A DNA stretch of 64,000 nucleotides, taken from the NCBI RefSeq assembly GCF_018350175.1, contig NC_058368.1:42844001-42908000 (forward strand). Reading direction: 5' to 3'. Origin of the DNA: Felis catus (lineage: Eukaryota). This document shows, in pieces, positions 5,409 through 62,569 of this stretch. Below the pieces are notes generated by a model, which had not been told where the DNA came from, made no database searches, and was given only the letters and a program-made list of their open reading frames with translations. Each line of letters opens with the position of its first letter. Position 1 is the stretch's first letter. Made by a program: the position numbers and the translations under genes.

Positions 5409-5631
5409 TTTTTTTTTTAATTTTTTAATGTTTACTTATTTTTAAGAGAGAGACAGAGATGGAGCATGAGTGGCAGAGGAGCAGAGAGAGAAAGAGACAC
5501 AGAATCCAAAGCAGGCTCCAGGCTCTGAGCTGTCAGCACAGAGCCTGACATGGGACTTGAACTCACAAATCGTGAGATCATGACCTGAGCTGAAGTGGGA
5601 TGCTTAACTGACTAAGCCACCCAAGTGCTCC
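5409..5631 (-). mobile_element. CanSINE (felid SINEC_Fc-type)
   Basis: Diagnostic gcaggctccaggctctgagctgtcagcacagagc core, tRNA-derived head and A-tail; 16-bp TSD agggcatcaattttct (5393-5408 / 5632-5647). Confidence 0.95.
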
Positions 5632-6000
5632 AGGGCATCAATTTTCTAATAAGGACTTTTTTCCTGGTGACTGTATATCATTTACCTGTGGTCTCTAGAC
5701 ACTTCTATTTCCTTAAATGTAAGATGGAGATGTTATTAGGCTACATGTCTATTGAGTCATTACAATTAAATGAAACAATGCTTTAGATAATGTTATTGTC
5801 CTATTTTTTGTGAAATTTTCTTCTATTCCGTTTCTAATTTCAACCTGTGAGTTTCATTTGTCTTGAATCACTGAACTTTTGAACTCTGCTTTTGTTTCCA
5901 CTCTGCTCAAATTGGTCTTTCTCTTACCCTACCATCCTATTTGCTCTTTCTTTTAAAAATCCCATTTAATAATCTCAGTATTATAAAGATTAGTCTGTCT

Positions 6001-6775: not shown

Positions 6776-6780
6776 ATAAT

Positions 6781-6925
6781 GAGAGAGGAAGACATAGAAT
6801 CTGAAGCAGCCTCCAGGCTCTGAGCTGTCAGCACAGAGCCCGATGTAGGGCTCAAACGCACAAACCGCAAGATCATGACCTGAGTTGAAGTCAGATGCTT
6901 AACCGACTGAGACACTCAGGCACCC
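6781..6925 (-). mobile_element. CanSINE, 3'-truncated (head half only)
   Basis: SINEC core and head present; CT-repeat and A-tail missing; abuts the L1. Confidence 0.9.
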
Positions 6926-8408
6926 TTGAATATTTCTTAATGCTATAAAGATAACTCAAAATATAAGCATCAAATAGAAGAATCATATCAGTGGTTGTTC
7001 AGATTTTATCTTGAGTCACTTTCAAATTACATTCACTAAGGTTTATTTTGGTAGAAATTTCACAAGAATTCATTTTTTCTTTCAGTTTCATTGAAAACTT
7101 ATACAAAACTTGTTACAAATCAGCTGTTCTTTCAAACTAATCACAATGTCTCAAATTTTTGTATATTTTTTTACAAACTGATAGTTTTTGGAAGATTTTT
7201 TTTAACAAGTTAGAAACTTCTATTTTAAAGTTTTTGTCTGTTTTTTAAGTGTACAGATACAAGTTTTTTAAATGGGTGGTGCACGTATGTCATTACCAAC
7301 AACCAAATGACATAACAAAGGAAACATTTCCAAATAGTATCTATTTTCTAAATACTTTTTAAATGGCACACATTTCTTTCCAAGAGCATTTACCTTCTGA
7401 CTCTGTTAAAATGTTCCATTTTTCTTAGATATGCAGATTATATGTGCTTTTTTTCAAGAACTGATAGGTGTCATACTGTTGATAATATTCAACCTTATTA
7501 GTGTCTATCAAAATAGTAATGATAGGTCAATAAATTTGAATGTCTTTCCTTTTTCATAAAGGAACAATGTGTAATCTATCTTTAAGTTGTATAACCCATT
7601 TTCTCTTCCTCCTGGATAACTGTAAATGTCTATGTGGAAAAAAAGTAGTTTCTTTTTTCTTTTTTTTTAAGTTTATTTTTGAAAAACGTAGTTTCTTAGT
7701 CAATCCTTATCGTTTAGCAAATTATGATGAAGATTTAACTACATTTTAAAGGTGTTGACTTTATACAATTAGGCACATCAATAACATAGTGCAATTATTG
7801 CAGTGAATTCTTCACAAAATAACTGAACTAAAAATAATTCAATAAAAGAATTTCAAATATAATATTCTTATTAAATACAGTGGACAAAAATCCCTATTTC
7901 AAATAGTGTTCTAGATAATAGTTTTCTGAATTCTGTGAACAGCTTCATTTTATATCTGATTAAGTTGTAATCATTTTCACCTGAAAATGTAAATGACTGT
8001 CAGTGCTGTCATTTTCTTGTGAGCTGATGCTTGCATAATTGGTTTTATCTCAATCTGCGTTTCAGGAGGAGGGGTAGGAAGCTTTTAAGATGTTTATCAA
8101 TTTTTGTGACTGTTAGTTTGGTTAAAATTAAATAGAATAATCTGAAAATTCCTTAACTTGGAATGCATAAACTGCAATAATTTGCTATATACTGAAAGTG
8201 AATGGTGAGGTTTTAAGTGCTTGGCTGCTGTAAAACTAAACTTTTTTTCAGCATAAATAACCTATTTTATAATGTGTGACCGCTTGATAGATGGAATTTA
8301 AAAAGACAATAGCTATGGTCCATATGTTGAATATTAGCAAAGTTTAATTTCCTTCCTTTGGTAGGAAATGATTACAAATAACAGTTATACTTTACTGCTT
8401 CCCAGTGG

Positions 8409-16548: not shown

Positions 16549-16847
16549 TGTTACGGAAACTGGTCTGGATCACCCGGCAGAAGAACCAAGGGGCATTCGG
16601 AGATCATGGAAGGCAGGAGGTTTATTTTATACGGGTGGGCTCAGAGGAGATCATTCTCCAGAGGTCTGAGACCAGAGCATCAACAGAGGGGACAATTTAT
16701 AGTCTGTTACTTCCACATCCCTCATTAGTAGTAATTTGACCCCTGAGGCAAGCAGGGTGGGACCAAGAACCAGGAAGGGAAGTCTCCAGGCAGGGACTGA
16801 AATTCTCTTATCCTGTTGGCCATCATAAAACAGATTTTTCCCTAACA
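16549..16847 (-). mobile_element. ERV1-type solo LTR (~300 bp) inserted in an L2 remnant
   Basis: TGTTA...TAACA inverted ends; TSD CCAC/CCAT; minus-strand TATAAA (16701-16696) and AATAAA (16626-16621). Confidence 0.85.
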
Positions 16848-17320: not shown

Positions 17321-18017
17321 AAAATCAGTGCTTACATAAGTTTGATAAGTGAGAAGTGAGAAGTGATTACTTTCTTGCAAGAATTACCAAACTTTTAATA
17401 TGCTAGTTGATGTGACCAGACTTAGAAGAGATATGTTTTGTGGAATTTACCAACATTCCAGAGCCCTGGAACTCCATTTTGATAAAAACCTTCCATATCT
17501 AGTGTTCTGTGTCCCACATTGTAGAAAACATTCACTTAGAAATTATTTGTTTAAATGGAAAGCCTACCATTTACTCTGAAGAGTTTTGTTTAATACATCT
17601 AAATTAAACAAATACAAGAATATCAATTAAAAAGACATTACTGTTCAAATTTGTTACTAATATAGCAGTTGGAGAAAAAAACAATCCTTCCCTAAGGCAG
17701 AAAATGGTGAATACCAAAAATATTTCCATTTACAAAACTGAAAATAAACTTATGTTTAAACACTTTGTTGTTTATAATTCAATTCTAATGATAGTGAAAA
17801 GGGTTTTTAAGAGAATTTGAATGCTGAATTTGAAATACTATTTGGCTTCTTGTATTTCTGCAATAATGTAATAAAAAATAGAAATTATAAGACAATTAAT
17901 AACCTATTCATAATAGGAATCTATAGGAAGAACAATGAGAGGAGAAAAGACTTCCCTTTATCAATATACACATTCAGAAACACTGGTAGTGTTCCACTGG
18001 AACACTGGAAGTGGAAG

Positions 18018-18329
18018 TATAGTGGGACCGAGGTTCACACAGAGCTGTGACATCAAGGCTTTTTTTTTTTCCAGGTAGTAACTTTAGTTGTGCCAGCATG
18101 GACTCAGTGGTTCATACCTGAAAAACTGAGCCCCAAGTGCAGCAGGGTATAGCCTCTTGTATAATTTCTACTTCTTTGTCTCCCAAACATGGTAACATAC
18201 AGACATACAGTCTGATTGGGTGATTTAAGTTACAGAGTCCTGAGGAATGTCATGAATGCACGCCCAGCCTGGTTGCTCTGCTTTGTCTTGAGGTTTTCAC
18301 CACATTCCTTAGGGAGGGCCTCTACTACA
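18018..18329 (-). mobile_element. 3' LTR of the provirus
   Basis: Aligns end to end with 26349-26659 (shared block ttctacttctttgtctcccaaacatggt...cagacatacagtctgattgggtg, shared end tctactaca); preceded on the minus strand by a polypurine tract. Confidence 0.95.
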
Positions 18330-18340
18330 TTCCCTCCTTT
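18330..18340 (-). other. Polypurine tract (PPT)
   Basis: AAAGGAGGGAA immediately 5' of the TGT that starts the 3' LTR. Confidence 0.85.
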
Positions 18341-18364
18341 GTTGCTCAGACCCTCCTCTTTTGC

Positions 18365-20289
18365 GTCCAAGAGCATCATCTTGGTTTTGAGGTTTATATT
18401 TCCATAAGATCATCACATCCATGGCTGTTTTTCTTTCGACCATTGCCTCAGTGAGCCTGGAGACAGACGGTATAACCAGGGGAGCTAGGCAAGATAGGAT
18501 TAAACAAGCTCCTAAAATCAAGAGGATAATTCCCATGAAGGTTTTGAATCCCTCCAGAAATAACCACCCTTGAAAACCATCCTCCAAATAACTCCCTGGG
18601 GTCCCAACCTTTCCAGGTCTGGCCTGGGACAGGAGCAACCTTTCTCATTTGATCTGTGATCTCCTCTATGACTCTTCCTTCATCATCTATCTGTAGGCAG
18701 TAGTTGCTCAGGTTAAACATTCCACAAACTCCTGCCTCAGAAGCAAGTAATCTAAGGCCAAGTGATTTTGATAGACAGCATTGCACATTTTGGTTTGCTG
18801 CTTGGCTAGTAAGTTAAGAGTTCTGGCAGTTTCATTGGTTATAATTTCTACAACTGCTTGCAGTCTGAATATGTGGTTTAGCATGTAAGTGGGAGTGCGG
18901 TAGCCCCAGGAACCATCCTCTTCCCAGGTAGGAGGGCCATATTATTGGATTGTATGCTCAGGAGGCCATTCATCATCTTTCCAATTGCCAATTTGTAGGG
19001 CATGCCATTTCCTCTGAGTCTCCCTGTCCCTTTACACTTGGACTCTCAAATGTTCCCCTCTGGCAAGTGGGAGCAGGAAGAAAGATGGATGAATAGTTCC
19101 TAGCACACATTACCCCAACCAGCCCTGAGGGAAGTACTGTATAGGCTGTTCTTCCACATATCCAGTATATCCTGGGGCTGGCCATTCAATGACTGCACTG
19201 ACATTTTCCCAGGTCTCTCAGAGATGAGAGAAGTTAGACAAGGGGTGGGGGATCTGGCTCAAGGTGATCTGGGGACCCCCCCACCATTGGGTTTCCTGGG
19301 CGGTTGAGTTATAAAATCTTTGCCCTAGGCACATTAAGGTTCTAACAGAGACAGTGAACTTTACTTCCCACTGAGCAAGGCAGTTTTGCTAATAATTGAG
19401 GCTTTGAGGAGCCATATCCTGGTAGTAGGACTGGGGTATTCTGTTCCATTACAAGATTCATGGGAATCTAATTCTCTAGCCTCCTATGGCCATTGATCCC
19501 CCATGTTGGTTCCCCTGCACACATAGCAAGAAGAGATCTTTAGGGTCTGGGCTATAGTTTCTGCTAAGGTAAGGAACAGGTTTCTTGTGGTGGAGATGGG
19601 GGGAGGGCTACTTTCTATTTCCTCATATATATACCAATTCTGAGGACATTTTCCCATTTGGGGTCTCCTAGATTAAAGACAGTGAAATTAATGAGGTTAC
19701 AGGCTCCTAATTTACAGCTGGAGGTTGCAGCCCCCTTTTGGAGGAGTGCCGTCTTATCTTTACCTTTCCAAGTGGCCCACGAGACACAGCTCCAACGGGG
19801 CCATAAGCCAAGCGATCACCATTATATGTGGATGGGGATGGGGCCTGTTCACACATATACTTGTCATTGAGCCTATAATCTCATTCCCATGGTAGACCTC
19901 GTCAATTGTGAACCAACAAAGGGTTTTTGTTAATGGCTGCACACATGTCAAAAAGTACCAGTACTGGCAGGTGGGGATTAGTAACCTGGGTTTAGCTGAT
20001 TAATTCCACCCCTCCTGGGAGTGTCAGACTTCCAACTATTCCTCAGTTGGGGAGTACTGTGGGTCAAAACAAGTGCATTGACTCTCCTGTTGGCAGATAG
20101 AATAGGTGGTCTTATTGTGCCTGCAGGTCCCCAGGACTTTTCCCTGGCATAGGAAGTGGGTATGGCATAGTAAGGTCCAAGTGACTTCCTGGCCTGACCT
20201 GGTTATGTGAATACATGGGTCACATGATGAGAAATCTCGGTCTACAGAAGGGGTCCAGATTAGAAGCAAACAATACCACAAAGAAGCAT
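18365..20289 (-). pseudogene. env: ERV env of ERV3/HERV-E type, disrupted
   Basis: SU N-terminus [157 protein letters not shown]; membrane anchor [21 protein letters not shown]. These closely parallel human ERV3 Env as I recall it. Several stops and frameshifts. Confidence 0.93.
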
Positions 20290-20332
20290 CCTATCCAGAG
20301 GTTTCTGCTAACAGAAACCTCTCACCACACTT

Positions 20333-20422
20333 CTAGCCAGCCGGGGAGGTCTCAGCCAGTTCTGTGGCAAAGAGTAAAGCAAGAATCACAATAATAGTGA
20401 GAAACAAGGGGTGACAGTGCAT
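20333..20422 (-). pseudogene. Small hydrophobic ORF between pol and env (29 aa; candidate remnant of a single-pass accessory protein)
   Basis: ATG at 20422, TAG at 20335-20333: MHCHPLFLTIIVILALLFATELAETSPAG*. It is below the ORF-track length cutoff. Confidence 0.45.
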
Positions 20423-20625
20423 CACAGTAAGGAAACAGATATAGAAAATAAGGACAGTCTATTTGTTCCACCAGACTGTTGATTCCTCAAGCTTCTGCTG
20501 TGCATATCAGCTTCTGGAGTGACTAAAGAAGGGCTGCAGTCTCCCAGGGCCTCTGGACTTGCAGATTGCTTCTTCCATATGGTCAACTTGCATGGCCTTG
20601 ATAGATCAGGAATGCACTCCCCATT

Positions 20626-23600
20626 TCAAGATGCCAGCTTCACTCTGCTGTGGTGAACCCAGGGACCCAACTCGGCCACCTTTACTGCAGTAGGGATGGA
20701 CAAAATGACAGTGAACAGGCCCCTCCAGAGGGGTTTTAGGAGTTGAACATTCCATTCCTTCATCCATACAGCATCTCCTGGTTTAAAGGGGTGAGCATCT
20801 GTGGTCAGACTCACAGGTAATGGCTCCCTAACCCAGTGGTATAAGGTAGTTAGTATAGAGTCAAGGGCCCGCATCTGTTGCCTTAGGGTTAGACTGCCTA
20901 TCTCATTTAGGTCCCCCTTATGCCCTTGATGATGGAGGGAGGGCACCCATAAAGGATTTCATAAGGGACAAACTCTGTCTGCTTAGTGGGGCTACACCTG
21001 AATTTTAACAAGGCAATTGGCAACACCTCAGTGTAGGTGGGTTTCATGACATAGTTAACTTACTCTCAGCTTCAGGGTTCAATTCATTTGTTCCACCACC
21101 CCGGAGCTCTGGGGTCAGTATGCCTTGTGTAACTTCCAGGTGATCTTTAAGCCCTTTGCCACCAGCTGTACCACCTCAGCCATGAACACTGGCCTGTTAT
21201 CTGATCCCATAGTGATAGGGATCCCAAATCGAGGAATGATTTCTTTTAGAAGAAGTCGGGCCACTTCTTGTGCCTTTTCTGGGAGAGCAGGGAGAGCTTC
21301 TGCCCAGCCTGAGAAAGTGAACTCAAAGACCAACAGATATTTACAGCCTTGGACCAGGGGAAGCTCAATGAAGTCCACCATCATATTTTCAAATGGGGCT
21401 CCCCTGACACTCTGCACCCAAGGGGTGGCCTTGGGTCTCTGATGTGGGTTATTCCAGGCACACATTTCACATTGCTCACATACTGCTTAGGTTATGCCAG
21501 AGAGTCAAGGGATGTAGAAATGTCAGCTCGATGTAGTCTCGAGAGCTGTCCAACCAATGGGGATTTCCTGATGGAACTGTTTGACGAAAGTTGGAGCCAG
21601 GGCCTCAGGAATTGCCAATCAGCTGTCTTCATTTCCACCATCCACCTGGGAAGTAGCTCCCATGTTTCAGTCTTAAACCAGGTGCTCTCACGTTGTGGGT
21701 GATTAGGGTCCCATTCTGCCAGTGGACTAGGGAACCATGTGGAGGCTAAAGCCGCTGATTCCACTGTCCCATTGGAGGCTGCAAGTTTTGTCTCTTGGTC
21801 TGCCTTACAGTTTCCCGGTGCAATCGTGGTGTCTCCCCTTTGATGTCCCCGACAATGCATGACTGCCACTCTTTTAGAGGCCCATACAGCATCTAAGAGT
21901 TCAAGGATTTCCTTACCATACCTTATGTCTTTTTCTCCTGAGTTTATTTATTAGACTCTTCTCTTTGTATAAAGTCCCATGTACATGGAGGGTGGTGAAG
22001 GCATACTTAGTCTGTGTATATATTAACATGTATCCCTGCCGCCAGTTGGAGGGCTCGGGTTAGCACCATGATCCCCCCTCCCTTTTTTATAAAACTGCTG
22101 TCAGTGAAATACTCAATGTAGGGGTCCTTGAGGGCCTGGTCCTTCAAGTCTGGTCGGCTGGAGAACACCTCATCCATGACTTTGATGCAGTCATGATCTG
22201 GTTGACTGGCCCAACAGGCAGTAGGATTGCAGGGTTTAGAGTCTGCACTACTTCTAGGTGAATGCATGGTTCTCACATAGCATTCCCTGATACCTGACAA
22301 TCCTGGCATTGGTTAATCAGTATTGTCCCTTGTGTTCTATTAATTTCAATACTGAATGTAGCACTCAGACTGTCAGTGCTTGTCCCACAGTTAACCTGCC
22401 AGCCTCAGACACTAAGAGGGCTGTGACTGCAAATGCCCATAGGCAAGGTGGTCAGCCTTGGGCAACAAAGTCAAGCTGCTTGGAGAGATATGCCACTGGT
22501 TGATGCCATGGCCCCAACATCTGGGTTAGGACTCCCACTGCTATGCCAGTGCACTCATGGACCAAAGAAAGAAAGAAAGGCTTGGTCACGTCTGGGAGCC
22601 CCAAACCAGGTGCATTAGTGAGGGCTTGCTTTATTTCCTCAAAGGCCTTTTGCTGTACTGATTCCCATATCAGGGGTTCCCTCTCTCCCCCCCTTTGTAG
22701 CCTCATTGAGAGGTTTTCCCAGGACTGAAAATCATATATCCAGATTCTACAGAAACCTGCGGCCAGGAGAAATCTGGTGTCGGGTTGACAGGACCAGGAT
22801 CGAACAAACAGCCTGCTTTTTCTCTGGGCCGAGTTGGTTCTGCCCCTTGGGACAAGTGGAAGCCAAGATATTTGCCTTTCTCTTGACAGATTTGGGCCTT
22901 TTTCCTTGAGACTTTGTATCCGGTTTCCTAGCGGAGGGTAAGGAGCTGCTGAGTCCCTTCCCTGCCATCCTCCCAGGACCTCCCAGCTGGCACCAAGTCA
23001 TCCACATACTGAAGCAGGACACAGCCATACTGATCTGCTGGGAAGGCTCTTTAGTCAGAGGCTAATGCAGTGCCGAAAATGTTGAGGAGTATTTGAACCC
23101 TGAGGCAATCTGGTTCAAGTCAACTGGCCATTGTTACCATTTGCAGGATTCTCCCACTGGAAAGAGAAGATTGGTTGACACTGGGAGGCCAGGTGGATGC
23201 AGAAGAAGACCTCTTTGAGGTCCAAGCAGGTGAAGAAGGTGGCTTTGGCAAGGATGAGCCCCAAAAGTACACAGGGGTTTGGGACCACTGGGTGTATGGT
23301 GATGGTGGCCTGGTTTACTGCTTGCAGTTCCTGAACCAGCCAATAGTCGTCTGTATTGGGCTTTTGGACAGGTAAGAGGGGAATGTTCCAAGGTGACTGA
23401 CATGGCCAGAGGATCCCATACTTTAAGAGTCTCTCTAGGTGCTTCTGGATCCTGGTATGTATCTTGCAGGGGATGAAGTATTGTCTCTGACAGGTGAGCT
23501 CTACCCCTGGCTTTAGTTCTATGATCACTGGAGGTATGTTCCAGGCCAGTCCTGGTGGGTTGTCCTTAGCCCACACCCCTGGTACTCTGAAGTGCAGCTC

Positions 23601-24029
23601 AGGTCCCTGTTGTGGCTACTGCATGAGACTGTAGAGATGCCATTCTTCCCCTTAGGGAATTGTGAGAGTCATAATCTTTGCTTCTGGCTTTCATAGCCTC
23701 AGAGCAACTTGTCCATGGGAGTTGAAAATTATCTGGGCCTGCAGCTTTCCTAAATAGGTCATGGCCCATTAAAGCCACAGGGTAGTCAGGGAGGTACTGC
23801 TTGGATGACGTCATGGCCGCCTAAACTGCATTGCTGAGGCAGCAGAAAGGGATGACATGTCCGATTTCCTGTGGCCCCCACAATGGTGGCTTGTCTCTAA
23901 GGGGGCCCACAGGTTGGGTCACCACCGAGTATTTTGCCCCAGTATCTACCATGAAGTCAATGGGTCAACCTCCACATTCGTTTGGACCATAGGCTCTTGG
24001 GGGTCTAAAAAAAGAGAGCCCAGTTTGTC
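20626..24029 (-). pseudogene. pol: ERV pro-pol, disrupted (PR-RT-RNase H-IN)
   Basis: Protease FMVDTGAKYS (DTG at 23938-23946); RT WAKDNPPGLA..SPWNIPLLPVQKP..LDLKEVFF, TRLPQG and LLQYVDDL (~22995-23015); RNase H YFTDSS and VNIYTD; integrase GSDNRPVF..WKLHKAY and C-terminal WRGLFTVILSIPTAVKV..WVHHSRVK. Confidence 0.95.
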
Positions 24030-25698
24030 TTTGTCCTCCTCATAGTCCTCCATGGCAGCTAGCCCCACAAAATCATCTTCGGTGGCCCCATGAGGCCGTG
24101 ATGCTGGTTGGTACCAGCCCTGGACCACATGGGCTCATTATTTCTGCTTGGGGCCCTGCTAAGAATTACCCAGCTGCAGGAGTCACTCATTTTTCTAGTG
24201 GCTTTCCTGACAACAGTGACCATGCTAACTCTGTCCCAACTTTGGTCCTGGGCAAGGTGATCCTCCCCACCATTCCCCCTTTTGGCCCCGGCCTCACCCT
24301 GTGGGGCACCTTTCCAGGAGCATTCCAAATACTCCACAAAGGCAGCAGCTAACATGTCTGCCCTTTTCTGCATCATCTGGCATTCTTCCCTCTGTGCCGC
24401 CTGGTTATGGTTGACAGACACCTAAGTTGCTACTTCCAGCAACTGACTAGCATTCATGACAGTGAAACCCTCTAGCATTTGCAGCTTGAGCTGGATGTTC
24501 CCTTCAGCCTGACCTGCAAAAGCCTCATTGACCATCCATTGATTACTGAGTGGTTCTGTATCAAAGGGGGTATAGAGACAAAATGCCCACATAGTCTCTC
24601 ATAGAACTGGCTCGGGCTCTCCTCAGGTCCTTGCCATTTAGAAGGGCTTCTTGATACTGTTCAGTCCTTGTGAGCCCTCCATCTACACTTGGGTCATCTG
24701 GGTCCCTTTTGGGGTACTCCCCAGGGAAGTGAGCCCAAGCATAAGCCTGGGTGTCTAGTGGCCCAGCTGGGGCATATTCCTCTAGCCATTTTAGGGCCGC
24801 CTGAGTAATTTGGCAATGCTCCTCCATGTTGAAGAGGGTCAGGAGGAGTTGGCGGCAGTCTGTCCAGGTAGGTTTATGGATTTGAATTATGGACTGCATT
24901 AGTTCAATCATAGCCTGGGGGCTTCTCCATTTAGGAGGGAGTAAGTGCTTCCAATTTATGAGGTCCGTAGTGGTAAAGGGTTTTGACACAAAAACATGCT
25001 GGCCTCCTCAGATCTGGGCTTCCTGATCATAATAGACAGGTCTCCTAGTTTCCCTCAGTGGCATCTATAGGGCTCCCTGGTGTTGCTGTAGAGGGACTGT
25101 CTCCACTGGCCTGATCTTCTAGTTTCCTTCTGGGAGGGGTGTTATGGGGTTAGGACCCGTGGTCCGGGTGAGCCCGTCACATCTGGAGAAGCCAGTGGTT
25201 CTAGAGGTGGTGAGGCCTCAGGACTAGGGAAAAGCTCTGGTGGGGTTTCAGAAGCCAGGGTGGCTAGAGATGCATGTGGCAGGCAGTGAGGGGTACGTTG
25301 GGGCATATGGTGGTGGGATCCCCTCAGGCTCTCCTGATAGTACAGGTTTTTCACTTTTTAGTTGGCATTTGGAGGAAACTGAGGCCTGAGCCATCATAAC
25401 TTTATAGTTCTCTTCCATACAGAGTTTTAGCCAAGGCAGTTGGGATAGTATCAGGTCTGGCCAACGGTCAATGTAAGGAAATTGGTCAGGGTGGAACCCC
25501 CAATGACCCTGAACACTCAGCCAACTAGTTCCTTATCAAGTGAGCTCTCAGAGGGCCAGCCCATCCCTACTGATCAATTTCATAGACTGTCCGGAACTTT
25601 CCGGAAGTTAACTTCACACTATAGTCTCTTAAATATCCCTTTTTGAAATTACTCAACATACACTCTAGTGGAATCAGTTTACTCTGCTTTCCACCCAT
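24030..25698 (-). pseudogene. gag: ERV gag, disrupted (MA-CA-NC)
   Basis: Starts MGGKQSKLIPLECML (Gly2, myristoylation type); CA segment PFTTTDLINWK...HKPTWTDCRQLLLTLFN; major homology region remnant QGPEESPSQFYERLC (~24590-24635); decayed CCHC knuckle ~24180-24235; multiple frameshifts and stops. Confidence 0.9.
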
Positions 25699-26326
25699 GT
25701 CCTCCCCCTAACAGACAACTTTTATGAACAAAAGAGGAAAAAGGGGGGAGGGAGGGACTAATCTGGAGAGGACAACACTCGCTTCATCTGTTTCTGGCCA
25801 CTCTCCTCTCAGAGACATTTCAGGCACCTCTTAGTATTGGCAGGATCAGTATTACTCCCTGACCCCAATCAGACTCCTGAGGAAGTCTGACGCCACCTTA
25901 AGACGAATGAGGTGGCCACGGAACCGCAGATCGGGACTCGCTTTGGTCCCAGGCTAGGTCGAAACCTCTCTGCTGTCTGTTTCACACACAGTCACACGGC
26001 AACTCCAACCTGCTGCCCAGTGCCTTAGAGTTGCGGTTTCATTCCTTATTCTTTACAGAACTACTCAGGCAACTCTGGGAAGTTATCAGGCCCCCTTCTT
26101 CCTCCTAGGGGCAGGTCTACCAAAACGAACGCAGGTTTTTACCAGTCTGATGGGGGGCGCTCCCCGAGGTGGTTTCTGGGCCTCACGGGGTTCCTTTGTG
26201 CATCCAGGGCCCTTGCCTTGGGGCACCGCTGGGAGGTCCTAGTCTCCTGTGGATTAAGCCGTCCACTGGCACCAGGCAAGGTCACTTCTCCTGGTGCCCT
26301 GAGGTTTGTACCCACAAACACCCCCT

Positions 26327-26344
26327 GCTGGATTCGAGCCCCCA
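26327..26344 (-). other. Primer binding site, tRNA-Pro-like (degenerate)
   Basis: Minus strand TGGGGGCTCG-AATCCAGC; the first 10 nt match the canonical Pro PBS TGGGGGCTCGTCCGGGAT; lies 4 nt after the LTR terminal CA. Confidence 0.7.
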
Positions 26345-26348
26345 AAAA

Positions 26349-26659
26349 TGTAACAGGACTGAGGTTCGCACAGAGAATCATGACACAGAGGCTTTTTCTT
26401 TCCAGGAGGCAACTTCATTGGTGCGGGCATGGGCTCAGTGGGTTCATACCCAAAAAACTGAGCCCCGGGCACAGTGGGGTGTAGCCTTTTATACAATTTC
26501 TACTTCTTTGTCTCCCAAACATGGTGATATACAGACATACAGTCTGATTGGGTGGTTTATGTTAGAGTCATGAGGAATGTCACCTATGCACACATAGCCA
26601 GATTGCCTTCCCTTGTGGTGAGGTCTTCACCACATTCCTTAAGGAGGGACTCTACTACA
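26349..26659 (-). mobile_element. 5' LTR of the provirus
   Basis: Minus strand starts TGTAGTAG and ends GTTACA; CCAAT box (plus attgg ~26547); TATAAAA at 26493-26487; degenerate poly(A) signal AATGAA; PBS follows after a 4-nt spacer. Confidence 0.95.
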
Positions 26660-26663
26660 GAAG

Positions 26664-38324: not shown

Positions 38325-38536
38325 TTTTTAAATTTTTTTTAATGTTTATTTATTTTTGGGATAGAAAGAAAGAGCGTGACTAGGGGAGGGAAGAGAGAGA
38401 GGGAGACACAGAATCGAAAGCAAGTTCCAGGTTCCCAGCTGTCAGCACAGAGCCCCACGAGGGGGTTGGACACACAAACTGCAAGATCATGACGCCGAAG
38501 TCAGATGCTCAACCAACTAAGCCACCAGCGTGCTCC
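38325..38536 (-). mobile_element. CanSINE
   Basis: SINEC body and tail; TSD not clear. Confidence 0.9.
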
Positions 38537-38916
38537 AAACATTAATTCTTTAAGGTGTAATATGGCCTAAAATTTTTTTAAGAAGCTTAATGTAATTCAG
38601 TGTTTAAGAAGACAGCCTTTATCAGTGAGGCTTTTGCTCCAGTGTTTGCCTCTGCTTTTTCTGGTCAAATGACTCTCCATTATGCCTTCCCTCCCCAAAA
38701 CAACCACTGATCCTCTTGGAAAATTCCGAAACTCTGAACTTTTCTACATAGGAGGCGGCTAACTCAGATCTTGGGAACCACATGAGATTTTTGGTTTGGT
38801 TTTATAACCTTCCCAAATCTTGCCCAATCTGATTGCATCATGTTTTCATTTCTTCCCAATGTTCAGAGCCCCACCAAAAAGATCCTGTCATTCCAATCAC
38901 TTTGACCCTTGTAATC

Positions 38917-48599: not shown

Positions 48600-49365
48600 T
48601 GATATATTGGCCAATAGAACAGAATAGAAAGTCCAGAAATAAACCCAAGTATAGGGAGTCGACTATTTTTTTTTAATCATAATAGGGATCTTCTCTTCTT
48701 CTTTTTTTTTTAATTCTCTTTAATCTTTACTTACTTTTGAGAGAGACACAGAGTATGAGCAAGGGAGGAGCAGAGAGAGAGAGGGAGGTACAGAATCTGA
48801 AGCAGGCTCCAGGCTCTGAGCTGTCAGCACAGAGCACGACGCAGGGCTCCAACTCACGAACCGTGAGATCATGACCTGAGACGAAGTCGGACGCTCAACT
48901 GACTGAGCCACCCAGGTGCCCCAAGAGTCGACTAATCTTTGACAAGGGTGCCAAGAATTTATAATGGGGAAAGGGTAGTTTCTTCAATAAATGGTGTTGG
49001 AAAACTGGATGTCAACATACCAAAGAATGAAATTGGTCCCTGTTTTCACATCATCAATTCAAAATGGACTAAAGACTTAAATGTAAGACCTACAGCCACA
49101 AAAATCCTAAAAGAAAGCACAGGGAAAAATTTTATTGATACTCTTCTTTGCAATGATGTATTGGATATACACCGGAAGCACAGGCAACAAAAGCAAAAAT
49201 AACAAAGGGGATCACATCAAACTAAAAAGCTTCTTCACAGCAAAGGAAACAAACAACAAAATGAAAAGGCAACCTTGGGAGAAAAAATTGTAAGGTATAT
49301 ATTTGATAATGCATTAGTACTCAAGATATTCACCGAACTCCTACATGTCAGTAGCAAAATCAAAT
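48600..49365 (+). mobile_element. L1 ORF2 fragment interrupted by a SINE
   Basis: aatagaacagaatagaaagtccagaaataaaccca...ctaatctttgacaaggg; peptide INSKWTKDLNVRP; catcaaactaaaaagcttcttcacagcaaaggaaac. Confidence 0.88.
48702..48922 (-). mobile_element. CanSINE with an extra 3' segment before the TSD
   Basis: SINEC body with many CpGs retained; TSD core gagtcgacta (48656-48665 / 48925-48934). Confidence 0.93.
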
Positions 49366-58507: not shown

Positions 58508-58719
58508 TTAAATTTTGTTTAGTTCTTATTTATTTACTTTTTAGAAGGGGGTGGGGGAGAGACAATGCACAGGGGAGAGACAGAAAGAGAGGACAGAGGA
58601 TCCAAAGCTGGATGTCTCCTGACAGCAGAGAGCCCAATATTGGGCTTGAACTCATGAATCATAAGATCATGACCTGAGCCAAAGTTGGAACCTTAACTGA
58701 CTGAGCTACCCAGGCACCC
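58508..58719 (-). mobile_element. CanSINE
   Basis: TSD tctggtacattcatttta / tctgatacattcatttta. Confidence 0.93.
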
Positions 58720-61700
58720 TCTGATACATTCATTTTAAGGAACACTAAATGTTTTGTTCAATTTTCAAAAACCTTTTAATTTTTTTATTTTTAAAATTAA
58801 AAAAAAATAATTTCAGTTAATTAGCATACAGTATTATTGCAGACCTTTGAATTCTATTTTGGAAAAGGAAAAGTATGATCGTTAAAAATGAGTGGAAAAT
58901 CATCTCATTACTTCATGGAGTGTTTTAGGTTTAGACTCATATATCAATTAAACATATGTAAAAGGAACTCATAAGAAATTCTTCCCATTATCTACAATTT
59001 CAATTATTTCATATCTAAGCAAAGAACAAGATTCGAATTACATATAACTACTGTAACACAAAAGTGATTTTGCATAAAGACATAGTTATCTATTATTTTA
59101 AATTCGATCTGATTCTCTTGCATAACTTTAACTAAAAATTATACAGAAATGGGGCAAATGTAATGGGAGGCAAGGTATATGGAAAATGTTTTTGGTTTCT
59201 TTCAGGTCAACTTGAATTTCAAAGGGAGAATATTTTTAACTTCCAATCACGTCTAAGTTATATCTTAAAAGACAGAACATTTGAAGAGCAATGTCATAAT
59301 TGTGTCATAAGTTAATAAAAGTCTCAAAGTTGCCAACATGATATTCAAGATTTTCTGAGTTTATGATAAATACTAAATTTTATGTCTGATACCCTCCTTG
59401 TTCATTTTATTTCATCTGCCAAACCTTTAAACACAAAAATCAAAATGAGTTACTATCTACTACTGATGCAAATGCTTATAACAAATAAATAGAGAATATT
59501 AGTACTGGCAGTTTACCTAATGAGATGCTGCTTCAAATGTGCAAGCTCGGCAAATGGCTTGTAAAGTGTCCCTGGAAATTAAAAGTAACAACATTTTGTG
59601 AAAAGTTGCAGCAACCAGAGACTGAAAATGTCTTCACTCAATTCAAATTCCTAAACCTTTTCCTGTTTGACAAGATGATATAAGTGCATAGGCCAAAAAT
59701 AGGCACAAATTATGCTATAACATCTGATACTTTTCAAGAGAAAATTTGGGAGAACGATAAAGTGGAATACTGTTTATAATGCGACTCTGAGGCTGCTGTG
59801 TAAATTGCTAAGATTTATTTTTACAAAATCTTCCAATTCCGTCTTTAATTTATATCTTTCTAAATCTGCTCCGGTAGTGAAACAAACGTGGCGGGCTTCG
59901 TTTTGATTCTACAGTAAAGTATATAGGGACTATGATAAAAATATAAAGATTAGCCTATGTTACTTCTTTCAGATTAGCCTCTGTTACTTTACATTAATCA
60001 GTTTATTCTGTAAGAAAAGGGAGGATTTTTCCCTAACCCCATCCTGACAATTACATTTTTAAATGATTTAAGGACTCTCAGAGATAAAAAATTATCATGA
60101 AGAAAGTATGATTATCAATAACTTGAATATGTAAAGATGCTGAGAGTGACTCTTTTGGGTAGTTAAGCCAACGTCTGTATTAGTTTGATGTAAACTGTCC
60201 ACTCCTATCCTTGCCTCCACTTTGATAAGTTTATTTGCTTCATTTTTAGAACAAATAAAGAAGCCAATAGTTTAGTCAATAGTTATTACAGAGGATTGCA
60301 ACTTACTAAGTAGTCTTATAGTCAGAAATGTGTGGTGTTTTGCTGAGACCAAAATAATGGAAACCGTTTCTATTCACTTAATACATTAGCTAAATTATAA
60401 GAGGTTTCTTAAAATGAATATCAGAGGAAATGTGAGATCACATGTCTGAGTTTAGGCTATAGACAGTAATAAAAGAAAGATTTTTTTTAAAGTTACAGAA
60501 TCAATTTTAGAAATCATAAACCACATATCAGCATTTAACCAATTATATAAACTACCTAGTGGTTCAAATATTTGGAGGTCTAGGTCAAGAGTGATTATTT
60601 ACATTAATTTTGTATATCACATTATTATCACCTCTCTCAGCGTTCATTTCATTAGATATGAAAAGATGCCTTTCTTTTTTTTTTTATTATTGTTTTGCAG
60701 GTCATAAGGATAGAGATTTATTTTTAACGTTTAAGTTTTTAGAAACTTCAATTTCAGTTTTAATATATAGTTTTATATTTCCTCTTAGAATTTTATTTCC
60801 TGCAGGAATGTTATGTGTTCCTTCCAACAGAACAGTTTCTGCTTATTCAACCATTTGACCATGGTTCCAGTAGATTTCAAGATTTTGCAGACCTTAATAT
60901 GACTATTAAAACTGGAGGCTTGAATAAATCTACTTACTAAAGATTTTACAACTTCTTCACAAATGTAATAAAGTTTAAAAAAAATCTAATTTCAGAGTAT
61001 TTTTCTTTGCTTTTTTAAAGTTCTTTTTGTATGATTAGTTACTAATGTGAGTATTTTTCCTATAAATTATGCAATATTTTTTAAAGTGTGTAAATATATT
61101 CTCATAAAACCTTAAACAATATAGAAATATATTACATAAAAATTGAATGTTTTTCTAACTTATTTTTCCTTACCCCAGCACTCACTATCATGTCTTTTCC
61201 TCAGAGATATTAAGATATTTAAGTATAGCATATATTTTCTAGAACTTTTCACTATGCATATGTATTTTTCCCTTTATAAATTTTGATTTAAGTAATTCAA
61301 ATAAGATAAACATAGAAATCTTTTTTCCAGCTTCTCACCATTTCTTCATGGGCAATGTATAAATAACATTGGTAACCTAGTATATTTGAGTCCATAATTT
61401 TTCCATATTTATAAAGAGTAGTATTATAAATGTATTTTGTATTTATTTGCTTTCAAAAAATATGAGCTCACTTTGCATAATTTGAAACTTAATATTTCTC
61501 ATTTCAAATGCACATTATACAAGCCCCAGGTAAGTACTGAACTCATTCATTTAGATACATGTACAATATTCCACTCTAGGTATGACACTTTATCCACTCA
61601 TTATTAATTGTTTTCAAGTTTTCTTTCCTAAAGTGAAATCATGACTATTTAGCTTGGACCACAGACTTACGTTATTTCTATATGATAAAATACCAAATGA

Positions 61701-62113: not shown

Positions 62114-62330
62114 AAAAAAATTTTTTTTCTTAATGCTTATTTATTTTTGAGAGAAAGAGAGACAGAGACAAGTTGGGGAGGGGCAGAGAGAGAGGGAGAC
62201 ACAGGATTCAAAGGCTCCAGGTTCTGAGCTGTCAGCACAGAGCCCGACATGGACCTGGAACCCACAAACCGTGAGATCATGACCTGAGCCGAAGTCGGTC
62301 ACTTAACCCACGGAGCCACCCAGGAGCCCC
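62114..62330 (-). mobile_element. CanSINE
   Basis: SINEC body; decayed TSD caggattttttattt / taggactttgtattt. Confidence 0.93.
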
Positions 62331-62569
62331 TAGGACTTTGTATTTTTATTCATTCGATTAATTTTCCTTTGCCAGTCCACTAAGTGGAAAATAATTTTCG
62401 TTTACATTTTTTTAATCAACCTTAAGGGCAGCCATATCTTCATTTGTTTATTATTGAGCCACTTTCTGAGGAATCATCTTCTACTCCATGTACGTTAATT
62501 ATTTGCTTCTCCGCCGCTTCTTGTTGCTTAAGATACATTTACTTCCTCATTTTCTTTTTTTAAGTAAAG

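Follow-up and report, generated by a model that had tools for sequence, protein, structure and literature searches.

Gamma-type LTR elements in the window

The window, a 64,000-nt stretch of the Felis catus genome, carries a decayed gamma-type provirus on its minus strand (18018–26659). Gag_p30, RT_RNaseH_2, rve (integrase core), and MLVIN_C were found by a Pfam scan in separate broken ORFs, and on these domains the element was assigned as a decayed gamma-type (ERV1) provirus. On its two sides, at 26660–26663 and 18014–18017, the target duplication (CTTC, 4 bp) is intact, which fixes the provirus ends at 18018 and 26659. The 5′ LTR is 311 nt long and runs from TG to CA (26349–26659, minus strand), and the 3′ LTR is 312 nt long with a purine tract before it (18018–18329, minus strand). 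The two are 87% identical across 127 nt, at a spacing of 8332. A decayed primer-binding site (PBS) lies at 26327–26344 (minus strand); its first 10 letters match a tRNA-Pro-type PBS and the remainder has diverged. In related proviruses that bear the hairpin described below, the tRNA-Pro-type PBS is intact. Another, related LTR family is represented by a solo LTR (299 nt, TG to CA) at 16549–16847 on the minus strand, whose flanks, ATGG and GTGG, agree at three of four letters.

The original prediction had seen no Tat-like ORF, and this was borne out by the Pfam scan: the 15 provirus ORFs of at least 80 aa contained gag/pol matches only and no Tat-family match, in a copy so badly decayed that a short ORF may have been lost. 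Searches against Rfam gave no family at gathering score in the window and, in 26350–26520, no match at E up to 10, TAR included. Raw RNA reads over the LTR numbered 1 and 3 in two raw-read RNA runs, fit it in part, and gave no site at which molecules begin; two contig runs, which may contain DNA, are of a kind that does not reveal starts. The window copies are dead relics.

Elsewhere in the window there are six copies of a 150-nt dispersed repeat (5483–5632, 6778–6927, 38392–38541, 48774–48923, 58572–58721, and 62182–62331), with 63–84% identity to the first copy. This repeat is probably a SINE.

A two-tier hairpin at the start of R

A hairpin stands at the start of R in each of these LTRs. 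The copy in the 5′ LTR (26431–26465, minus strand; 57.1 bits with R1, a covariance model of the ERV hairpins) reads from 26465 to 26431 as a 9-bp lower stem and a 4-bp upper stem, separated on the 5′ side by a 5-nt U bulge and capped with an AUGA loop. Folding gives −20.1 kcal/mol (z −6.06), an energy reached by 0 of 200 dinucleotide shuffles. The solo-LTR hairpin (16637–16673, minus strand; 50.3 bits with R1) reads from 16673 to 16637 as a 9-bp lower stem with one mismatch and a 5-bp upper stem, with a 5-nt CCUCU bulge between them and an AUGA loop at the tip; its energy of −15.2 kcal/mol (z −2.46) was reached by 4 of 200 shuffles. For both hairpins, letters and fold are as the original prediction described them.

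The lower-stem mismatch reported for the solo LTR is present in the window copy and is private to it. At the third hairpin letter, where the mismatch sits, G is found in 24 of 30 family copies, A in five, and T in one; the GGU of the window copy is therefore a change of that copy alone.

Upstream, the TATA box of the 5′ LTR (TATAAAA, 26487–26493, minus strand) aligns with the TATA boxes of exogenous MLV-type records, and the solo LTR has its TATA box at 16696–16701 (minus strand). The distance from the TATA box's first T to the hairpin base is exactly 28 nt in both LTRs, as had been claimed (26493 to 26465; 16701 to 16673). Downstream, the 5′ LTR has a decayed poly(A) signal, AATGAA (26414–26419, minus strand), at a place where most family copies have AATAAA. 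In the solo LTR the signal AATAAA is kept (16621–16626, minus strand) and begins 47 nt past the first letter of the hairpin.

The 5′ LTR hairpin still forms when the entire 139-nt R-U5-PBS piece is folded. By both the hairpin fold and the R-U5-PBS fold, a structured element is present at the 5′ end of an R-U5 region of the simple-retrovirus type. The 3′ LTR copy of the proviral hairpin (18100–18133, minus strand; 38.4 bits with R1) has private mutations in the 3′ arm of both stems and also where the upper stem begins, at its base. Despite these mutations it folds at −16.6 kcal/mol, with the upper pairing shifted. Both hairpins are supported as real structures of the RNA, located at the 5′ end of LTR transcripts or close to it.

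Family copies across the genome

The 2.43-Gb assembly was searched with a 241-nt query from the proviral LTR, for which 40 of 741 first-look candidates were scored and 41 matches obtained, and with a 301-nt query from the solo LTR, for which 40 of 593 candidates were scored and all 40 matched. Thirty loci per family were aligned (family A, proviral LTR; family B, solo LTR). Every pair of the hairpin is intact in 16 of the 30 family-B copies and in one of the 30 family-A copies, namely the window's own. The conservation of the hairpin within each family is unexceptional: equally wide stretches of the LTR were as low in 23 of 186 cases (A) and 85 of 242 cases (B). Such weak within-family conservation is expected if most differences postdate insertion.

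The AUGA loop had been put forward as a feature common to both hairpins. In family A, the middle of the loop reads TG in 10 copies, CA in nine, CG in five, and other in six (n = 30), and the letters at the junction of bulge and upper stem are CA in 13, TG in nine, CG in four, and other in four (n = 30). This spread is the pattern left by CpG decay, so that decay, and not selection for a likeness between the families, probably produced the AUGA loop of the window copy. The loop shared by the two families is thus in part a coincidence arising through CpG decay, and sister variants have GUGA, 5-nt, or 6-nt loops.

The two LTRs had also been presented as belonging to different families that do not align. 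Compared by BLAST, the window LTRs indeed gave no cross-match along their length. Their R regions, however, are alike, with eight of nine lower-stem pairs carrying the same letters and with equal spacing to AATAAA. Since eight of nine pairs are the same in the proviral and solo-LTR families, the element is homologous by descent, and the independence of the two hairpins was overstated.

Two observations concern single loci. A member of the solo-LTR family (L054:1676–1718, plus strand) has U-A, not C-G, as its fourth lower-stem pair, and two others (L050 and L053) are changed on the 3′ side only; the L054 change could reflect a compensated sublineage or chance. At L043:932–974 and L050:239–282, a second hairpin-bearing LTR lies less than 1.5 kb from the first, and these paired LTRs may be nested or tandem insertions.

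Variants of the two-tier hairpin

An exact-arm pattern, composed of two 7-nt arms, a free interior, and AATAAA, matched the genome 307 times (154 + 153), as compared with 0 matches for a reversed control. From the 100 pattern matches listed (of 307) and 30 loci that were cut out, we could read at least five related LTR variants in which the two-tier shape is kept and the pairing bases differ. Variant 1 is the proviral type of the window. Variant 2 adds to it one more A on the 3′ side, which pairs the first bulge letter and leaves a 4-nt bulge. Variant 3 has C-G atop the lower stem, an upper stem based on GGG/CCC, and a 6-nt loop. Variant 4 is the solo-LTR type, with an AUGA or GUGA loop, and variant 5 combines an upper stem of the solo-LTR type with a 5-nt loop. 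Intact examples of the variants fold at about −20 kcal/mol.

Conservation of both bulge and loop had been proposed. The bulge is all-pyrimidine and 4–5 nt long in all five variants, and its composition is conserved together with the two-tier shape, but the loop is variable across them. The extended form was sought in a viral collection of 2.9 million contigs as well, where 15 matches were found, none with an LTR-like context.

Some arm-pattern matches elsewhere in the genome sit in a repeat ending ...CTGAGCCACCCAGGCGCCCC, which resembles carnivore tRNA-derived SINEs. At one place the arm pattern matches twice, once on each strand (L063/L064); the hairpin of this LTR copy is a near-perfect palindrome, and a chance AATAAA lies on the opposite strand.

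In a sample anchored on the PBS (the first 20 of 110 genome sites), the hairpin lies 5′ of a tRNA-Pro-type PBS in five. The same 20 sites include three other gamma-type LTR groups with different, weaker R-start folds (z −1.2 and −1.5 in the two groups tested) and one unclassified site. The folds of these groups neither strengthen nor weaken the case for the hairpin. One such group accounts for 10 of the 20 sites (L115–L119, L128–L131, and L134) and has a long R that opens with a CU repeat; its R fold of −20 kcal/mol is ordinary for its composition (z −1.2).

Retained pairing and covariation

Pairing across the variants was assessed in two sets of rows. The first, a picked set, comprised 29 well-formed rows from 90 loci, 10 retrieved by LTR similarity and 19 from a pattern that itself forces seven lower-stem pairs. 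In this set 96.7% of cells pair, as against 24–50% with slid partners, and changes on both sides were seen at six pairs, a count reached by 3 of 500 shuffles. The second set was unselected and comprised all R1 matches in 60 loci retrieved by similarity (63 matches, 56 distinct rows). Here 90.8% of cells pair versus 22–47% with slid partners. At three pairs, two pair types occur about equally often (A-U/U-A, A-U/G-C, and U-A/A-U). Changes on both sides occur at five pairs in the unselected set versus a shuffled mean of 4.5, and this count was reached by 238 of 500 shuffles.

Variant 3 contributes a third pair type, C-G, at the top lower-stem pair, and it has U-G in the upper stem in seven of seven rows. 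A subfamily of the solo-LTR family also has U-G. These pairs fit the sense RNA only. When RNAalifold was run, a check that the original prediction had proposed, both helices were recovered unaided, the three basal G-C pairs of the lower stem being shifted in register.

The covariation observed is a handful of compensatory events among a few related lineages, all in one clade. The claim of compensatory covariation therefore stands insofar as pairing is kept through changes on both sides across the variants; its breadth is reduced to few events within a single clade.

Probable relation to the MLV-type R stem-loop

A stem-loop at this place in gammaretroviral LTRs has been described before, reportedly by Cupelli et al. 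1998 and Trubetskoy et al. 1999. In the relevant passages of PMC1769482 and PMC2664473, an R motif is called highly conserved in mammalian gammaretroviruses and important for LTR-driven expression. The 28-nt motif given there is found letter for letter in three exogenous records, and PMC1769482 credits it to Cupelli et al. 1998. [quoted passage not shown] As far as these citing papers go, the expression effect of the MLV element was shown in non-replicating reporter constructs (PMC1769482, PMC2664473), and compensatory stem variants restored reporter activity. They disagree on the step affected, which is initiation in PMC1769482 and RNA processing in PMC2664473. More generally, sections of PMC3651342 describe expression as enhanced by R stem-loops in many retroviruses, and sections of PMC3601003 link the conservation left over in long R regions to stem-loops. 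Searches of open-access text brought up no paper that describes the extended, bulged form for carnivore ERVs.

For comparison, 24 viral records were retrieved by the tRNA-Pro-type PBS motif. An R start of GCGC[C/A]AGUC is present in 12 of the 24, and six of those 12 begin at that very letter. One exogenous MLV-type record was identified as a gammaretrovirus by its Rfam encapsidation signal, and in three exogenous records Rfam matched this encapsidation signal only and no family for the R stem-loop. Nucleotides 1–28 fold into a hairpin in 12 of 12 records (−9.4 to −11.9 kcal/mol and z −1.6 to −3.2 in the three tested), and one record has A-U where the others have C-G in the stem.

The exogenous and ERV elements agree in placement. 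A TATA box is present in five of the six exogenous records with upstream sequence, its first T lying 29–30 nt before R. AATAAA stands at +47/+48 in the 12 exogenous records, and in the window the poly(A) signal is 47 and 48 from the hairpin base. Measured from TATA through AATAAA plus six letters, the interval is 84–88 nt in the ERV variants versus 87–89 nt in the exogenous records.

The arms, aligned by MAFFT, have in common the cores CAGU (5′) and ACUGAG (3′). An extra U in the ERV 5′ arm pairs an A that is left bulged in the exogenous form, and the ERV bulge is positioned where, in 10 of 12 exogenous records, the loop opens with a pyrimidine run. The two forms are alike in their gamma-type LTR, a position about 28–30 nt past TATA, an AAUAAA about 47 nt on, the CAGU/ACUGAG cores, and compensatory pairing. 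They differ in that the MLV-type stem-loop is 28 nt long and the ERV form 35–38 nt; the former has an 8-nt loop, whereas the latter has a 4–5-nt pyrimidine bulge, a 3–5-bp upper stem, and a 4–6-nt loop. The MLV-type stem is interrupted by two single-letter bulges whereas the ERV lower stem is perfect, and the energies are −9 to −12 kcal/mol and about −20 kcal/mol, respectively.

The covariance model R1 found the three window copies; with it, 0 matches to MLV-type hairpins were obtained at E up to 10, and nothing convincing in the 24 viral loci. Given that R1 misses the MLV-type hairpins, homology rests on position, spacing, and the two short arm cores. From these sequence features, descent from a common stem-loop appears to be the better account, with convergence as the alternative.

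We consider it quite likely that the hairpin is the ERV version of the long-known MLV-type R stem-loop in an extended form, and hence an ordinary feature of retroviruses rather than a TAR-like switch of a new kind. The original prediction had taken it for a newly found element, and this does not hold, as its place and arm cores are those of the 28-nt R stem-loop of MLV-type gammaretroviruses. What stands of the proposed selected 5′-terminal RNA element in ERV1 LTRs is an RNA structure whose pairing has been kept.

The comparison also bears on the start site, which had been placed exactly at the hairpin base. This placement is only approximate, since exogenous R begins 29–30 nt after the first T of the TATA box. 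By that spacing, the ERV start would be expected 1–2 nt inside the stem, at the second or third G (26464–26463), so that the 5′-terminal stem would have 7–8 pairs instead of 9. At the 3′ end of the RNA, R is preceded by U3, and there all nine pairs could form.

Weighing of alternative explanations

The comparison with TAR concerns what the hairpin might recruit: a bulged 5′ hairpin could bring in a viral trans-activator, or a host elongation complex via its bulge, and thereby free paused polymerase. HIV-1 TAR is likewise a 5′-end hairpin in R whose lower and upper stems are parted by a pyrimidine bulge, and the ERV hairpin, at about +1 and with a bulge of pyrimidines only (4–5 nt) in five of five variants, resembles it in shape, as the original prediction had said. 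The likeness ends there. HIV-1 TAR comes from another genus, its bulge is 3 nt long and its 6-nt loop is conserved, whereas the ERV bulge is 4–5 nt long and the loop is small and variable. The 1998 work of Cupelli is also said to have found the HIV-1 R unable to replace the MLV R element. The window element has a gamma-type genome whose 15 ORFs, in a decayed copy, gave no Tat family, its sequence gave no Rfam match, and TAR proper was rejected on these three counts. In addition, 10 of 12 exogenous MLV-type records, whose viruses lack a trans-activator, have the pyrimidine run as the 5′ half of their plain loop, and we regard TAR-like action as highly improbable. Another explanation is that the main selected role lies in replication mechanics, either in the first strand transfer by way of the complementary hairpin in strong-stop DNA or, from a position 10–12 nt before AAUAAA, in tuning of the poly(A) site at the two RNA ends. 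The hairpin lies wholly in R and ends 11–16 nt before the poly(A) signal. Reviews describe R as the repeat used in strand transfer and state that the 5′ copy of AAUAAA has to be silenced in retroviruses that have this signal in R. The expression effect of the MLV counterpart, however, was seen in reporters that do not replicate, as the citing papers relate, and a primarily replicative role is unlikely. Roles in strand transfer or at the poly(A) site are possible and are compatible with a role in expression.

The remaining two explanations deny the RNA structure a function. If the selected feature were a DNA-level palindrome at the start site, such as a site for a dimeric factor or a core-promoter element, the RNA fold would be incidental. 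The upper stem and the top lower-stem pair change letters while complementarity is kept, which a sequence-specific site would not tolerate, and the family-level U-G pairs of variant 3 and of the solo-LTR subfamily suit the sense RNA alone. These compensated changes and sense-only pairs led us to reject a palindrome in DNA, which we hold to be very unlikely even though 26465–26431 is a perfect inverted repeat whose antisense strand folds as well, sits at the initiation region, and is followed in all variants by a CCGG-centred palindrome. That the hairpin is a chance inverted repeat without function would agree with its unexceptional conservation within families. Chance was nonetheless rejected, and has a negligible probability in our view, on the shuffles (z −6.06 and 0 of 200 as good for the window hairpin), on the recurrence of the two-tier shape in five variants with a simpler hairpin at the same place in exogenous viruses, and on the pattern counts, namely 307 genome matches against 0 for the control and only 15 unrelated matches in 2.9 million viral contigs.

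Proposed role and relation to other 5′-terminal elements

Under the preferred reading, that of an extended MLV-type R stem-loop, the hairpin would have formed as RNA at the capped 5′ end of each LTR-driven transcript while the family was active, and would have formed again at the 3′ end of the RNA, 10–12 nt ahead of AAUAAA. In the ERV clade the bulge and upper stem stand in place of the simple 8-nt loop of the exogenous form, giving a much more stable hairpin. The stem-loop would be expected to work in cis by way of host factors, no viral trans-activator being involved, and to raise viral RNA expression as is reported for the MLV element; in reverse transcription, the R repeat would also serve the first strand transfer. 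What is observed in the window and its relatives is the structure and where it lies, the gamma-type context, the common arms, and the retained pairing. The effect on expression, and any protein partner, we infer by analogy with the MLV element.

Action through a host factor is described for the 5′-terminal control element (PCE) of SNV, REV-A, FeLV, and others, which in the relevant parts of PMC2657110 binds RNA helicase A. Like the ERV hairpin, the PCE is a structured part of R-U5 with which the RNA of a simple retrovirus begins. It acts via a host protein and raises expression post-transcriptionally (PMC2657110), and by analogy the ERV hairpin might do the same. The PCE is described there as redundant stem-loops across R and U5. 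Because FeLV, a gammaretrovirus, is on the PCE list, the PCE and R stem-loop descriptions may overlap. Conserved R stems with G-rich and C-rich sides are also reported, in parts of PMC2664473, for HML-type betaretrovirus-like LTRs and for the HTLV-1 Rex-responsive element. Those stems fold between AAUAAA and the poly(A) site and join the two (PMC2664473), whereas the ERV hairpin lies upstream of AAUAAA.

A bolder version can be formulated around the bulge, whose 4–5 nt are always pyrimidines. It would be a selected dock for a host RNA-binding protein, the ancestral R stem-loop having been rebuilt as a two-tier structure in a carnivore ERV1 clade. Action would then be bipartite, with TAR-like logic but dependent on host factors, and the hundreds of surviving copies might still impose the structure on those host transcripts that begin in these LTRs. 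We regard this version as a long shot.

For several abundant LTR variants, with at least 307 exact-arm copies in the genome, the hairpin sets the boundary of U3 and R and marks where transcription probably starts. The variants show the gammaretroviral R stem-loop in naturally occurring forms that differ in stem, bulge, and loop; this structure is described in papers but is without an Rfam family. No new regulatory principle is involved, and the value of the finding is modest.

A last feature lies between the hairpin and AATAAA. All ERV variants have a short CCGG-centred palindrome there (26420–26430 and 16627–16636 in the window, both minus strand; L001–L090 and L092–L114 elsewhere), which is 8 letters long in the majority of proviral-family copies and reads ACCGGT in the solo-LTR family. 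In the exogenous MLV-type records, CCCGGGTACCCG stands where the ERVs have this palindrome. Its central CG is lost in both window copies.
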